Assembly: GCF_963921235.1 (NCBI RefSeq) | Contig: NC_086097.1 | Span: forward strand, 17,112,001-17,176,000 | DNA: 64,000 nt | From: Mobula hypostoma | Taxonomy: Eukaryota | Reading direction: 5' to 3' | In this document: in pieces, positions 1,173 to 52,170 of the stretch | Layout of the letters: the number at the start of each line of letters is the position of its first letter | Position numbering within the stretch: the stretch's first letter is position 1 | The notes under the pieces: generated by a model | The model's input: only the letters and a program-made list of their open reading frames with translations | Told to the model about the DNA's origin: nothing | The model's database searches: none | Program-made: the position numbers and the translations under genes

Positions 1173-1614
1173 AGTTCTTTGCCAGATCTGTGACAAATCT
1201 TCTTTGTCATTATCTTCTTCGTCTTTCAATCAGATCTTGAATATTTTTCTAAGGTAGACCCATTGAGCACTATAGTACAGAAACAGTCCCTTTGGCCCAT
1301 CTAGTCTGTGCCAAGTTCTCCTGCCTTGTCCTGTCTACACCCATCCAGACCATAGCCTTCTATAACCCTCTCATCCAAGTACATACAGTTGAAGTCAGAA
1401 GTTTACATACACCTTAGCCAAAATACACTTAAACTTAGTTTTTCACAATTCCTGACATTTAGTCCTAGAAAACATTCCCCATCTTAGGTCAGTTAGGATC
1501 ACTACTTTATTTTAAGAATGTGAAATGTCAGAATAATAGTAGAGAGAATGATTTATTTCAGCTTTTATTTCTTTCATCACTTTCCCAGTCAGTCAGAAGT
1601 TTACATACACTTTG

Positions 1615-1830
1615 TTAGTATTTGGTAGCATTGCCTTTAAATTGTTTGACTTGGGTCAAACGTTTTGGGTAGCCTTCCACAAGCTTCTCACAATAAGTTG
1701 CTGGAATTTTGTTCCATTCCTCCAGACAGAACTGATGTAACTGAGTCAGGTTTGTAGGCACATGCTTTTCCTTGCTCGCACATGCTTTTTCAGTTCTGCC
1801 CACAAATTTTTTTTATCGGATTGAGGCCAG
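1615..1830 (-). pseudogene. Inverted duplicate of the transposase C-terminal coding region
   Basis: ORF 1615-1803(-) ends PTNLTQLHQFCLEEWNKIPATYCEKLVEGYPKRLTQVKQFKGNATKY, nearly identical to the end of ORF 2412-2735(+). Confidence 0.92.
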
Positions 1831-1841
1831 AAGATGATGTC

Positions 1842-2735
1842 AAGTCTGGTTATCTTTGGGAGCAATTTCTAAATGCCTGAAGGTACCACGTTCATCTGTA
1901 CAAACAATAGTACGCAAGTATAAACACCATGGGACCAAGCAGCTGTCCGCTCAGGAAGGAGACGTATTCTCCTAGAGATGAATGTACTTTGGCGTGAAAA
2001 GTGCAAATCAATTCCAGAACAACAGCAAAGGACCTTGTGAAGATGCTGGAGGAAACAGGTAGACAAGTATCTATATCCACAGTAAAACGAGTCCTATATC
2101 GACATAACCTGAAAGGCTGCTCAGCAAGGAAGAAGCCACTGCTCCAAAACCGCCACAAAAAAGCCAGACTACAGTTTGTAAGTGCACATGGGGACAAAGA
2201 TCTTACTTTTTGGAGAAATGTCCTCTGGTCTGATGAAACACAAATGGAACTGTTTGGCCATAATGACCATTGTTATGTTTGGAGGCAAAAGGGTGAGGAT
2301 TGTAAGCCGAGGAACACCATCCCAACCGTGAAGCATGGGGGTGGCAGCATCATGTTGTAGGGGTGTTTTGCTGCAAGAGGGCCTAGTGTACTTCACAAAA
2401 TAGATGGCACCATGCTAAAGCTCAGTCACAAATGGGTCTTCCAAATGGACAATGACCCCAAGCATACCTCCAAAGTTGTGGCAAAATTGCTTAAGGACAA
2501 CAAAGTCAGGGTATTGGAGTCACAAAGCCCTGACCTCAATCCGAAAGAAAATTTGTGGGCAGAACTGAAAAAGCATGTGCGAGCAAGGAGGCCTACAAAC
2601 CTGACTCAGTTACACCAGTTCTGTCTGGAGGACTGGAACAAAATTCCAGCAACTTACTGTGAGAAGCTTGTGGAAGGCTACCCAAAATGCTTGACCCAAG
2701 TTAAACAATTTAAAGGCAATGCTACCAAATACTAA
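1842..2735 (+). pseudogene. Tc1 DD34E transposase, disrupted
   Basis: Motifs VLWSDET, KHGGGSIML, FQMDNDPKHTS, SQSPDLNP.ENLW and C-terminus KQFKGNATKY. Lacks the N-terminus, has frameshifts, a TAG at 2358-2360 and an internal deletion near 2412. Confidence 0.93.
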
Positions 2736-2864
2736 CAAAGTGTATGTAAACTTCTGACTGACTGGGAAAGTGATGAAAGAAATAAAAGCTGAAATAAATC
2801 ATTCTCTCTACTATTATTCTGACATTTCACATTCTTAAAATAAAGTAGTGATCCTAACTGACCT

Positions 2865-3065
2865 CAACAAACTGTTGAGGCCAGTTCATTAGCTATGTTT
2901 AAAAGGAAGTTAGATATGGCCCTTGTGGCTACAGGGGTCAGGGGGTATGGAGGGAAGGCTGGGTTCTGAGTTGGATGATCAGCCATGATCATAATAAATG
3001 GCGGTGCAGGCTCGAAGGGCCGAATGGCCTACTCCTGCACCTATTTTCTATGTTTCTATGTTTCT
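2865..3065 (+). mobile_element. Short 5'-truncated CR1 (family B) inserted in the right IR/DR of the Tc1
   Basis: Close match to the reverse complement of 55977-56180; (TTTCTATG)n tail; interrupts CTGACCT|AAGACAGGG, which is continuous in the left arm. Confidence 0.9.
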
Positions 3066-3227
3066 AAGACAGGGAATGTTTTCTAGGACTAAATGTCAGG
3101 AATTGTGAAAAACTGAGTTTAAATGTATTTGGCTAAGGAATATGTAAACTTCTGACTTCAACTGTATCAATACTTCTCTTAAATATTGTAATTGAACCTG
3201 CAGCCTCCACTTTCACACCAGATTGTT

Positions 3228-4242: not shown

Positions 4243-6636
4243 CAGGAAAGTTTTCTAAATCAATATATGGAGGGACCAACTAGAGGGGATGCAATATTGG
4301 ATCTCCTGTTAGGAAACAAATTAGGGCAAGTGACAGAAGTCTGTGTAGGGGAGCACTTTGGTTCCAGTGATCATAACACCATTAGTTTCAATTTGATCAT
4401 GGACAAGGATAGATCTGGTCCTAGGGTTGAGGTTCTGAACTGGAAGAAGGCCAAATTTGAAGAAATGAGAAAGGATCTAAAAAGCGTGGATTGGGACAGG
4501 TTGTTCTTTGGCAAAGATGTGATTGGTAGGTGGGAAGCCTTCAAAGGGGAAATTTTGAGAGTGCAGAGTTTGTATGTTCCAGTCAGGATTAAAGGCAAAC
4601 TGAATAGGAATAAGGAACCTTGGTTCTCAAGGGATATTGCAACTCTGATAAAGAAGAAGAGGGAGTTGTATGAAATGTATAGGAAACAGGGGGTAAATCA
4701 GGTGCTTGAGGAGTATAAGAAGTGCAAGAAAATACTTAAGAAAGAGATCAGGAGGGCTAAAAGAAGACATGAGGTTGCCTTGGCAGGCAAAGTGAAGGAT
4801 AATCCAAAGAGCTTTTACAAGTATATTAAGAGCAAGAGGATTGTAATGGATAAAATTAGTCCTCTTGAAGATCAGAGTGGTTGGCTTTGTGCGGAACCAA
4901 AGGAAATGGGGGAGATCTTAAATAGGTTTTTTGCGTCTGTATTTACTAAGGAAGCTGGCATGAAATCTATGGAATTGAGGGAATCAAGTAGTGAGACCAT
5001 GGAAACTGTACAGATTGAAAAGGAGGAGGTGCTTGCTGTCTTGAGGAAAATTAAAGTGGATAAATCCCCGGGACCTGACAGAGTGTTCCCTCGGACCTTG
5101 AAGGAGACTAGTGTTGAAATTGAGGGGGCCCTGGTAGAAATATTTAAAATGTCGCTGTCTACGGGTGAAGTGCCGGAGGATTGGAGAGTGGCTCATGTTG
5201 TTCCGTTGTTTAAAAAAGGATCGAAAAGTAATCCGGGAAATTATAGGCCGGTGAGTTTAACGTCAGTAGTAGGTAAGTTATTGGAGGGAGTACTAAGAGG
5301 CAGAATCTACAAGCATTTGGATAGACAGGGGCTTATTACGGAGAGTCAACATGGCTTTGTGCGTGGTAGGTCATGTTTGACCAATCTGTTGGAGTTTTTC
5401 GAGGAGGTTACCAGAAAAGTGGATGAAGGGAAGGCAGTGGATATTGTCTACATGGACTTCAGTAAGGCCTTTGACAAGGTCCCGCAAGGGAGGTTAGTTA
5501 GGAAAATTCAGTCACTAGGTATACATGGAGAGGTGGTAAATTGGATTAGTCATTAGCTCGATGGAAGAAGCCAGAGAGTGGTGGTAGAGAATTGCTTCTC
5601 TGAGTGGAGGCCTGTGACTAGTGGTGTGCCACAGGGATCAGTGCTGGGTCCATTGTTATTTGTCATCTATATCAATGATCTGGATGATAATGTGGTAAAT
5701 TGGATCAGCAAGTTTGCTGATGATACAAAGATTGGAGGTGTAGTAGACAGTGAGGAAGGTTTTCAGAGCCTGCAGAGGGACTTGGACCAGCTGGAAAAAT
5801 GGGCTGAAAAATGGCAGGTGGAGTTTAATACTGACAAGTGTGAGGTATTGCACGTTGGAAGGACAAACCAAGATAGAACATACAGGGTTAATGGTAAGAC
5901 ACTGAGGAGTGCAGTGGAACAGAGGGATCTGGGAATACAGATACAAAATTCCCTAAAAGTATCATCACAGGTAGATAGGGTCGTAAAGAGAGCTTTTGGT
6001 ACATTGGCCTTTATTAATCAAAGTATTGAGTATAAGAGCTGGAATGTTATGATGAGGTTGTATAAGGCATTGGTGAGGCCGAATCTGGAGTATTGTGTTC
6101 AGTTTTGGTCACCAAATTACAGGAAGGATATAAATAAGGTTGAAAGAGTGCAAAGAAGGTTTACAAGGATGTTGCCGGGACTTGAGAAACTCAATTACAG
6201 AGAAAGGTTGAATAGGTTAGGACTTTATTCCCTGGAGTGTAGAAGAATGAGGGGAGATTTGATAGAGGTATATAAAATTATGATGGGTATAGATAGAGTG
6301 AATGCAAGCAGGCTTTTTCCACTGAGGCAAGGGGAGAAAAAAACCAGAGGACATGGGTTAAGGGTGAGGGGGGGAAAGTTTAAAGGGAACATTAGGGGGG
6401 GCTTCTTCACACAGAGAGACAGAGAGTGGTGGGAGTATGGAATGAGCTGCCAGACGAGGTGGTAAATGCGGGTTCTTTTTTAACATTTAAGAATAAATTG
6501 GACAGATACATGGATGGGAGGTGTATGGAGGGATATGGTCCGTGTGCAGGTCAGTGGGACTAGGCAAAAAATGGTTCGGCACAGCCAAGAAGGGCCAAAG
6601 GGCCTGTTTCTGTGCTGTAGTTTCTATAGTTTCTAT
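4243..6636 (+). mobile_element. CR1 (HER1-like) LINE family A, 5'-truncated, young
   Basis: End of endonuclease (PTRGDAILDL, SDHN), full RT (KSPGPD, NYRPVSLTS, SGVPQGSVLGP, FADD), 3' UTR and TTTCTAT(A/G)G tail. Confidence 0.96.
4267..6465 (+). pseudogene. CR1 ORF2 (endonuclease end + reverse transcriptase) with one premature stop
   Basis: ORFs 4267-5556 and 5578-6465 share a frame, separated by TAG at 5554-5556 (TGG in the sister copy); an 8-nt duplication near 6411-6427 shifts the C-terminus. Confidence 0.92.
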
Positions 6637-7583
6637 GGAAAATATCAGTGAACCAGTTCGTTGGATATGTTTACAAACAAGCAATGCTTATGGTTCTGTC
6701 AAGCTATATTACCATAATTTCATTGGCTGTAGATCTTATTGGGTCATCTTGTGGATGGGGAAAGGGCTGCATAAATGAAAATTCTTTAATATGCAAAGTG
6801 ATGGAAGAAGAGGGAAGAAATAATTTGGCTGTGTTAAGGAGGGAGTGGAGAAACTACGTCTTATGTGCCATCAACATCAAATTGAAAGTTCTAAGTAAAT
6901 TTATTTTCAAAGCACATACAGTATACATCATCATACCTTGAAATTAATTTTCTTGTGGGCATTCGCAGTAGATCAGAGAATAGCCAAAGACTGATAAACA
7001 ACCAAAGTGCCAAGGACAATAAGCTGTGCAAATTAAAATAAAGTGTATGTCTGATTCATAGGTGTGGATCAGTTCAAAGATGAGGGAGGGAAGTTATCCA
7101 CACTAGTTTAGGAGGCAGATGGTTGAAGGGTAATAACTGTGCACCATCAATCTACAGATCATGCCTCTCAGGGACTTGTGCTAATGTAATTTTTTTTGTA
7201 ATTGTATTTGCTATTTTAACGATTCATGCTGTGTGCTGTTTGTGACTCTACATACTGTGTCTTGCATCTTGGACCTGGATAGTTACTGTTTTGCTTAGCT
7301 GTATAGAAGTGTATGGTTGAATGACAATTAACTTGAACTGTTCCTGAACCTGGTGCTGTGGGACCTGAGGATCCTGTACCTCCTTCCCAATGGCAGTAGC
7401 AAGAAGAGGGTCTGGCCTGGGCGGTGGGGGTTCTTGATGATAGATGCTGCTTTCTTGCAGCAGTGCTCCTTGTAGATGTGTCCAACGGGTGGGAGGGCTT
7501 TGCCTGTGATAGACTGGGCTGCGCCCACCACTTTTGGAAGCTTTTCTGTTCTTGGGTCTTCATGTTTCCATAAGGGTAAAATC

Positions 7584-23336: not shown

Positions 23337-24862
23337 GAGACTAGTGTTGAAATTGCGGGGACCCTGGCAGAAATATTTAAAATGTCGCTGTCTACAGGTG
23401 AGGTGCCGGAGGATTAGAGAGTGGCTCATATTGTTCCGTTGTTTAAAAAAGGATCGAAAAGTAATCCGGGAAATTATAGGCCGGTGAGTTTAACGTCAGT
23501 AGTAGGTAAGTTATTGGAGGGAGTACTAAGAGACAGAATCTACAAGCATTTGGATAGACAGGGGCTTATAAGGGAGAGTCAACATGGCTTTGTGCGTGGT
23601 AGGTCATGTTTGACCAATCTGTTGGAGTTTTTCAAGGAGGTTACCAGGAAAGTGGATGAAGGGAAGGCAGTGGATATTGTCTACATGGACTTCAGTAAGG
23701 CCTTTGACAAGGTCCCGCATGGGAGGTTAGTTAGGAAAATTCAGTCACTAGGTATACATGGAGAGGTGGTAAATTGGATTAGACATTGGCTCGATGGAAG
23801 AAGCCAGAGAGTGGTGGTAGAGAATTGCTTCTCTGAGTAGAGGCCTGTGACTAGTGGTGTGCCACAGGGATCAGTGCTGGGTCCATTGTTATTTGTCATC
23901 TATATCAATGATCTGGATGATAATGTGGTAAATTGGATCAGCAAGTTTGCTGATGATACAAAGATTGGAGGTGTAGTAGACAGTGAGGAAGGTTTTCAGA
24001 GCCTGCAGAGGGACTTGGACCAGCTGGAAAAATGGGCTAAAAAATGGCAGATGGAGTTTAATACTGACAAGTGTGAGGTATTGCACGTTGGAAGGACAAA
24101 CCAAGATAGAGCATACAGGGTTAATGGTAAAGCACTGAGGAGTGCAGTGGAACAGAGGGATCTGGGAATACAGATACAAAATTCCCTAAAAGTGTCGTCA
24201 CAGGTGGATAGGGTCGTAAAGAGAGCTTTTGGTACATTGGCCTTTATTAATCAAAGTATTGAGTATAAGAGCTGGAATGTTATGATGAGGTTGTATAAGG
24301 CATTGGTGAGGCCGAATCTGGAGTATTGTGTTCAGTTTTGGTCACCAAATTATAGGAAGGATATAAATAAGGTTGAAAGAGTGCAGAGAAGGTTTACAAG
24401 GATGTTGCCGGGACTTGAGAAACTCAGTTACAGAGAAAGGTTGAATAGGTTAGGACTTTATTCCCTGGAGCATAGAAGAATGAGGGGAGATTTGATAGAG
24501 GTATATAAAATTATGATGGGTATAGATAGAGTGAATGCAAGCAGGATTTTTCCACTGAGGCAAGGGGAGAAAAAAAACCAGAGGACATGGGTTAAGGGTG
24601 AGGGGGGAAAAGTTTAAAGGGAACATTAGGGGTGGCTTCTGCACACAGAGAATGGTGGGAGTATGGAATGAGCTGCCAGACGAGGTGGTAAATGTGGGTT
24701 CTTTTTTAACATTTAAGAATAAATTGGACAGATACATGGATGGGAGGTGTATGGAGGGATATGGTCCGTGTGCAGGTCAGTGGGACTAGGCAGAAAATGG
24801 TTCAGTACAGCCAAGAAGGGCCAAAGGGCCTGTTTCTGTGCTATAGTTTCTATGGTTCTATG
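23337..24862 (+). mobile_element. CR1 family A, second copy (RT and 3' end)
   Basis: Near-identical to 5104-6636; ORFs 23421-23840 and 23847-24617; TAG stops at 23414-16 and 23838-40. Confidence 0.96.
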
Positions 24863-25226
24863 GAGGAGAGAGCAAGTTTGTAAATTTGGTTGGAGCAAAG
24901 GATGTTGCTAATGGTGAGGTGGAGCACTGCAGGAAGGGCATGGGACAGAGAAGGAGTGCCAGGGGTGTGGCACAGGTGCAGACACACTCCGCCCTGAGAC
25001 ACCTGGCAAAGACACTTGATTATTACAGAATGTCTCGCTGGTACTTGCCACTCCCTCCCATCTCCCTTCCCCTTTTCCTAACCATGATTCTTCTCTCCCT
25101 GCCCCTTCACACTCTCAGTCCACAAAAGAGGCCCATATCAAAAATCAGGCTTATCATCACTCACATATGTCGAGAAATCTGTTTTCTTTTTGTGGCAGCA
25201 GTACAGTGCAATGCATAAAATTACTA

Positions 25227-51201: not shown

Positions 51202-52170
51202 TGTCATGGTCCGGTCTGTAAAGTCTGCTTTCTGTTTCACGGTCCGGTCCATTGTTCCTTATTCCAGGTTTTCCGGTTTTCTCTTGTTCTGTTGGATGCT
51301 CTAATTGAAGCACTCGATTCTCATTTTGGGCTGGCTACATAAATAGCCCCTGGGGTCAGCTTCATTTGCTGGACTGTTCCCTTCCCTTCTCCTGAAGCCT
51401 TTGCCCTTGCCCTTGCCTGTATTGCTGTCAAGTTCTAATGCTGGAGCAAGCTGGAGCCTTGCTGTGTCTAGGTAAGGAACTGTCTATTGTTGATTGGAAC
51501 TGTCTGTCTGTGTCCATGCCTTTGCTAGGTAGGTCTGGCTGTTTGCTGCTACCTTTTGCTGGGAACTGCCACTCTGTGTTCCGTGTATGAGTGCCAGCCC
51601 TAAGTCCTGTCCCCAAGGAGGGGTCCTGGCTCTGTGTTCCTGTTCTGCTACGACCAAGTCTCTGTGTTCCTGTTCTGCCACGACCAAGTCAAGGATTCGA
51701 GGTCTCGTCCTGTCCATGTGCCTCGTCCTGTGCAGGAGTTCCTCATCCAGTCCTGAAGGCATGTTATGTCTTTGCCTACTTCTGGAGTCTGAGCCCGAGT
51801 CAAGACCCAGGTTCTGGGTTCTTGCTCAGTCTCTGGCTCAGAGTCCATACCCAAGCCTTGAAGAACCCAAGCCATGTCCAGTCCTGTAGCCACGTCATGT
51901 CCTCGCCTAGTTCCGGGGTCTGAGCCCGAGTCAAGACCCAGCTTCTGGCTCGGAGTCCTAGCCCAGGCTCCTAGTTCCTTGTCCTGATTCCGCTTTCCTA
52001 GTCAAGTCCTAGCCCAGGCCCTGTATCCTAGTCTCATCCAGGGCCTGCGTCAATGTCCAGTGTCATTTCTTCCCCACTTCCCTTGCTTTCTTGACAAACC
52101 TAGTCCTGTTCCTTGTACTTCAGTGTCTGTGTCTTACATTTGGGTCTGCCTTCAGTGCCCCCTTATGACA
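51202..52170 (+). mobile_element. Solo LTR (Gypsy-like)
   Basis: TGTCAT...ATGACA termini; 5-bp duplication GTATC/GTATT; TATA-like CATAAATA near 51338; homologous to 1-1172. Confidence 0.85.

Follow-up and report, generated by a model that had tools for sequence, protein, structure and literature searches.

The element and its target site

The window analysed here, a stretch of 64 kb from Mobula hypostoma, holds near its beginning a transposon unit of 1779 bp (1386-3164). The unit is flanked by TA on both sides (1384-1385 and 3165-3166) and carries four DRs in normal order, two per end, with the TA target duplication present. The features at the locus are as follows.

1255-1385, minus strand: old LINE 3' fragment, the left part of the target, ending in TA 1384-1385 (flank alignment)
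1386-1826, minus strand: left arm, an inverted right IR/DR with transposase codons about 274-340; outer DR 1386-1417, inner DR about 1584-1613
1486-1647, no strand: 162-bp tract identical to 2703-2864 (arm alignment)
1760-1768, no strand: 8-bp local duplication, left arm only (arm alignments)
1827-1842, plus strand: 16-nt remnant of the transposon 5' UTR (reference 260-275; 15/16 letters)
1841-2735, plus strand: dead Sleeping Beauty (SB)-family transposase, first 23 codons gone (matches to Pfam and to SB100X chain 5CR4)
2530-2864, plus strand: right arm, inner block, with the coding end and the inner right IR/DR; AATAAA at 2781, 2793 and 2839
2865-3065, plus strand: LINE 3' end insertion of 201 nt in the right arm (self-comparison)
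3066-3164, plus strand: right arm, outer block; the outer DR has a two-base change at 3139-3140
3165-3202, minus strand: TA 3165-3166 and continuation of the old LINE fragment (flank alignment)

The coding part gave Pfam matches to HTH_SB (PF25787; 46.1 bits against a cut-off of 43), HTH_Tnp_Tc3_2 and DDE_3, and the E values of its alignments with SB100X chain 5CR4 were 6e-46 and 1e-56. Among proteins that carry a label, salmonid ones come nearest, with up to 88% identity. Judged by these matches, the element is a derivative of a Sleeping Beauty-family Tc1 transposon (IR/DR, DD34E). Its transposase copy is dead: besides the lost first 23 codons there are deletions of 1, 4, 4, 57 and 6 bp, frameshifts and in-frame stops, and against a relative of 340 aa 19 residues are gone before the second D and 2 between the second D and the E. 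An intact ORF of ~340 aa with D, D, 34 residues and E is absent. Three acidic residues still align, at positions 153, 244 and 279 of protein P0005, which we take to be the residues in question. Another relative of the SB family, protein P0121, has an internal tandem duplication of its C-terminal DDE region.

Over the body (1841-2529), 42 of 689 sites differ from salmonid-type SB relatives. This distance of 6%, despite a cartilaginous-fish host, suggests horizontal transfer. The available part of a survey of 2022 lists no SB or SB-like element for Chondrichthyes (PMC9777934). A short motif of the window was found in one protein among the 240 fetched, and this protein is labelled Mobula hypostoma.

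The target is a LINE 3' fragment that presumably belongs to CR1, Pfam having given only RVT_1 for the LINE frame of the window. The empty site was rebuilt by taking the element out and keeping one TA, and the joined flanks matched two other LINE 3' pieces of the window gap-free (24860-24697 and 6621-6467; 69% over 165 and 155 columns, respectively). An earlier note on this DNA had described clean TA flanks within one continuous CR1 fragment, and the gap-free alignment bears out the flanks and the continuity. The 201-nt insertion, on which that note is silent, is the 5'-truncated 3' end of a further LINE, present in the right arm only and 94.6% identical over 204 columns to 56180-55977; once it is skipped, the right arm is collinear with the reference elements introduced below. 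Self-comparison of the 64-kb window found no second copy of the transposon, and the number of Rfam matches in the window was zero.

Two right ends and the junction between them

The unit was compared with two relatives of intact layout, L001 and L002 (1639 bp each), which come from metagenome contigs and were among 3 loci obtained by a scan from 237 pattern matches; no relatives were found in plasmid, prokaryote-genome and viral collections. Between L001 and L002 there are 12 differences in 1638 sites, and within each of them the left and right ends are only 69-70% alike. Positions 1386-1830 of the window are 90% identical to the right end of these relatives (445 columns) and 67-68% identical to their left end (about 230 columns). 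Furthermore, the minus strand of the left arm encodes the C-terminus of the transposase (tblastn, residues 294-340 at 87%). What stands at 1386-1826 in place of a left end is the element's own right end, copied in inverted orientation together with about 67 transposase codons. This is what the earlier note had proposed when it read the left end as a reverse-complemented right IR/DR joined to the end of the transposase, and self-comparison, for which it had called, recovered the inverted arms as two pairs of blocks, 1486-1830/2530-2864 (94.5%, 345 columns) and 1386-1487/3064-3164 (93%, 102 columns). Since the window's arm corresponds to the relatives' right end while the relatives' own ends differ, the family normally does not have identical ends, and the objection that such ends might be the rule does not apply. 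The relatives have unlike left and right ends with a half-DR enhancer, whereas here both ends are right ends, and the element has lost its left IR/DR, half-DR enhancer and start codon along with most of the UTR.

The same note had the inverted end joined near 1830-1841 to a 5'-truncated sense transposase. The truncated body was recovered, but the joint keeps a 16-nt piece of UTR and not filler. This piece, 1827-1842, corresponds to reference 260-275, the part of the 5' UTR that adjoins the left IR/DR on its inner side, and is sense and collinear, with 15 of 16 letters the same. None of 300 shuffles reached its score on both reference strands; in a blind search over the whole window E is 0.91 and there is one equally good chance match, so that the weight of the remnant comes from its position at the joint. 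There is microhomology of about 3 nt where the arm meets the remnant and of 2 nt where the remnant meets the body, the second joint spanning a 169-bp deletion which removed the start codon (reference position 389). Neither joint carries a TA or a transposon end. Taken together, the microhomologies and the UTR remnant point to template switching. An idea that the replaced (443) and replacing (about 444) lengths match was dropped, the UTR remnant meaning that there are two joints.

The arms can be aligned over 434 columns in two blocks (a stem of about 335 + 99 bp), with 15-16 substitutions, depending on which of two aligners is used, and three indels; the insertions on the left arm are of 8, 2 and 1 bp. 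Polarised against L002, the left arm holds 9 of the arm differences and the right arm 7; beyond these, the two arms share 21 departures from both references. Perfect arm-to-arm runs measure 162, 43, 42, 30, 24, 24, 23 and 17 bp. The longest (1486-1647/2703-2864) exceeds what random placement of 16-19 breaks gives, with P 0.009-0.002 in a test that was post hoc, and the tract is poorer in G+C (30% vs 40%). A two-base change in the inner DR (1590-1591 and 2759-2760) is present in both arms, whereas both references and the sequencing run X1, described below, have other letters there. The 162-bp tract is probably a later arm-to-arm conversion, which would explain both the long perfect run and the shared change at 1590-1591; selection on a duplex is a possible alternative. 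The shared change had also been considered as proof of one aged source copy, and this was dropped as it lies inside the probable conversion tract. The run starts exactly at the 5' joint of the LINE insertion, and LINE repair may have copied the other arm. Three of the four DRs, which are predicted binding sites, differ from those of the family, namely both inner ones and the right outer one (3139-3140).

With the 162-bp tract set aside, about 15 of 272 columns distinguish the arms, or about 2.8% per arm. In a plus-strand RNA 5 of the 15 mismatches would pair as G-U, and in a minus-strand RNA 8; these counts are what transitions give and carry no sign of selection for pairing. The arms decay as if neutral.

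Routes to the rearranged element

Sequencing runs from other organisms were searched for the locus. None of the 24 runs holds half of the sampled words, and six recorded RNA runs stand at shares of 0.08-0.12. Contigs of four runs (X1, X2, X21 and X22) were compared with positions 1000-2525 only. Three of them (X21, X22 and X2) have reference-type letters and no depth in the flank bins, which places them outside the host lineage and makes them uninformative on the locus; their loose ends at 1852 run into normal 5' coding sequence. Run X1 has the window's letters at family-level sites (e.g., 1469, 1503, 1581, 1612-1614, 2062 and 2064) and covers the flanking repeats, and its source is therefore a related host. 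Missing X1 contig cover on 1153-1254 was not counted as evidence. At seven listed left-arm sites where the arms differ (1428, 1436, 1462, 1480, 1481, 1648 and 1693) X1 reads the other letter at full depth, and an X1 contig of 292 bases differs from the body at 10 sites (3.4%). Among the matches listed for X1 (15 of 425 joints, 24 of 2910 loose ends and 32 of 233254 pieces) no joint or piece spans the junction at 1826-1842, nor does any contig among the matches listed for the four runs. No X1 contig among the matches listed (40 of 117 letter rows) has the locus's own alleles, the status of X1 as RNA being a guess. The X1 contigs argue weakly against a large sister lineage.

The earlier note had left two routes side by side, transposition in the right/right form and conversion in place, and both fit two right ends between TA flanks. 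On balance, and with modest confidence, we favour the second: an SB-family copy would have inserted at this TA, been rebuilt in place by a copying error and decayed since, any fold-back RNA being incidental. The most likely setting would be repair of a break that transposase had made at a time when the family was still active. Minus-strand synthesis would have copied the right end and the body up to the 5' UTR (reference position 260), switched at the microhomology of ~3 nt to the other strand (reference about 1206-1210), and then run outward, copying the final 67 codons and the right IR/DR. Rejoining of the left flank may have used the near-identical terminal DR, so that both TA flanks stayed in place. 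A second short jump in the same repair, or a later deletion, would have taken away the 169 bp with the start codon and left the 16-nt remnant. Later decay would comprise the arm substitutions, the LINE insertion, the coding deletions and one probable arm-to-arm conversion.

The in-place route is supported by the collinear UTR remnant, the microhomologies, the single TA duplication, the differences on both arms and a precedent among mariners. At ~2.8% per arm, the divergence is nearly that between the body and X1 (3.4%); this suggests, from one contig of another organism, a rearrangement of about the same age as the copy and would fit repair of a transposase break. The precedent is found in the insect Rhodnius prolixus, where the mariners Rpmar49 and Rpmar17 are described as having their 5' end replaced by their 3' end, with transposase sequence in the arm (PMC4678618). 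What the Rpmar49 type and the present element have in common is that one end was replaced by an inverted copy of the other which extends into coding sequence. They differ in that Rpmar49 and Rpmar17 are mariners with short TIRs, known in 13 and >100 copies, respectively, whereas here a Tc1 element of the IR/DR type, with unlike ends in its relatives, has a 434-bp arm and one known copy. For the same layout Filee et al. favoured, in the part of their paper that was available, a deletion between two neighbouring copies (PMC4678618). The long-TIR mariner MITEs Dromar7, 11, 28 and 36 of Drosophila likewise owe unusually long TIRs to end replacement, but there the 3' part was replaced by the 5' part and the resulting forms were amplified, while here the replacement is the reverse (PMC4161770). 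Replacement in that reverse sense is reported by Wallau et al. in 2014 for seven Drosophila sublineages, its origin being called elusive (PMC4161770).

A more doubtful route, which we still regard as a serious possibility, is that the right/right form was made elsewhere, by template switching or by deletion between opposed copies, and that a helper transposase then brought it to this site as one member of a small non-autonomous lineage resembling Rpmar49. The clean TA duplication and the four DRs in normal order speak for it, and it predicts the same local picture as an origin in place. The left-end half-DR enhancer is described as not essential (PMC7827188), which makes arrival by transposition plausible, and Rpmar49 has 13 independent copies of the same layout (PMC4678618). 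The SB survey gives TIRs of 44-415 bp and an SB 3' TIR overlapping the ORF, as far as its available part goes (PMC9777934). Against arrival by transposition, the 64-kb window holds one copy only, and among the matches listed no contig of the four runs spans the junction, although three of these runs are of another lineage. Furthermore, the left end of SB is reported to be the preferred first-bound end (PMC5224488).

With Sleeping Beauty and the salmonid Tss1 the element shares IR/DR ends, four DRs, a TA target and an SB100X-like transposase; it differs from what is described of them in having no left IR/DR, half-DR enhancer or start codon, and a broken ORF (PMC6362248, PMC5224488, PMC7827188). 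No published case of a natural right/right element in the IR/DR subgroup was found in the literature covered, which excluded most subscription papers and Table S1 of PMC9777934. The end-replacement layout itself is already known from mariners. The element extends a rearrangement of insect mariners to a subgroup in which the two ends differ in function, a result of modest importance. The junction would preserve a readable trace of template switching, the step that Wallau et al. called elusive in the available part of their paper (PMC4161770). Sister copies, should there be any, would show in nature whether SB-type transposition can do without the left-end enhancer.

The predicted fold-back RNA, readings set aside and the neighbourhood

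The earlier note had further proposed that transcription of the locus would give ~440 bp of dsRNA and that the locus might act as a silencer resembling Mu killer. Plus-strand RNA of 1380-2875 is predicted to fold into a long stem, so the fold-back stands as a prediction, but the duplex would consist of the two blocks of 434 columns with their 15-16 mismatches and would be perfect over at most 162 bp. AATAAA hexamers are found on the plus strand at the three positions given above and on the minus strand at 1506, 1552 and 1564. Since they lie in the distal arm on either strand, a transcript coming from either side would end there and give a duplex of about 270-335 bp. SB inverted repeats are reported to transcribe weakly inward, and RNAi to lower the expression of SB vectors (PMC3343047). 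The predicted fold, the hexamers and such inward transcription together make a self-contained hairpin transcript possible.

On the silencer reading, a transcript starting in the inward-facing left arm, or reading through from outside, would end at the poly(A) signals of the right arm and form a duplex with about 205 nt of coding sequence, from which small RNAs silenced the family in the germline. We consider this improbable. The long predicted stem with distal hexamers on either strand, and the inward transcription and RNAi response of SB sequences, count in its favour. The decay on both arms, the three indels, the LINE inserted in the right arm and the loss of the promoter-side end count against it, and the proposed role found support in none of the tests. 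No transcript with this copy's alleles was seen among the matches listed for X1, whose RNA status is guessed. Nor did the window yield a host protein domain in 117 open frames of at least 75 aa outside the LINE blocks; 117 of 120 frames were scanned, the three transposon frames being left out, and there was one RVT_1 match and one marginal match to a lentiviral S2 model. Ten LINE blocks of the window lie on the plus strand and 6 on the minus strand, with no clear strand bias. In vertebrate somatic cells long dsRNA is poorly processed into siRNA. In Xenopus embryos the small RNAs derived from Tc1 are described as mainly piRNAs, which need no hairpin (PMC3144230).

Maize offers precedents in Mu killer (PMC3440606) and in Ac composite insertions (bioRxiv 10.1101/2020.01.07.897926), which, as described there, likewise carry one end twice and contain transposase sequence as an inverted duplication. 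In Mu killer, however, it is the promoter-side TIRA that is present twice, with 1.3 kb from the 5' part of mudrA in each arm (PMC3440606); the present element has doubled its 3' end and lost its 5' end. Mu killer is transcribed and silences an active family genetically (PMC3440606); the arms described here are a third as long and interrupted. In addition, one study ties Mu killer silencing to short antisense RNAs incapable of long hairpins (PMC3440606). Should small RNAs derived from the arms exist, the locus would be a vertebrate killer locus, relevant to the question of how a genome first recognises a DNA transposon that has just entered it.

Even less credible in our estimate is the fuller version, that the right/right SB-type element was its own hairpin gene, with a ~300-bp duplex kept matched by conversion, and helped to shut down a horizontally acquired SB family in the cartilaginous-fish germline. 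If true, this would give vertebrates a counterpart of Mu killer and, with sister copies, supply natural proof of enhancer-free movement of SB.

Long inverted repeats are difficult to assemble, and no run among the 24 holds half of the sampled words; an assembly artefact, in which a fold-back chimera or a collapsed repeat placed the right end at the left, is nevertheless rejected as scarcely credible, given that 15-16 substitutions, three indels and a 201-nt insertion are split between the arms, with a collinear UTR remnant at the junction and an intact target site. A re-inserted autointegration (inversion) product of the transposon is equally implausible, and the sequence at the junction largely refutes it. 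SB is known to form such products in cells, but what autointegration produces is an inversion or a deletion, with transposon ends and TA duplications at the internal joint (PMC3952818). The present element instead has a duplication of 434 bp, and its joint shows neither a transposon end nor a TA duplication.

An old repeat at 1-1172 ends 213 bp upstream of the transposon and could be a source of read-through transcription. It has a second copy at about 51203-52170, with blocks 71-81% alike, which starts with TGTCA, ends with TGACA, has GTAT near both ends and resembles a solo LTR; for a neighbouring repeat we assume the label Gypsy. Two LINE 3' copies (5104-6639 and 23337-24864) are 96.7% identical over 1537 bp, and an open LINE frame of 441 aa at 4231-5553 matches RVT_1. 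By this identity and the open frame, the LINE family is a young one. Elsewhere in the window an inverted pair, 10026-10330/12437-12743, is 307 bp long and 93% identical, its members lying 2.1 kb apart.
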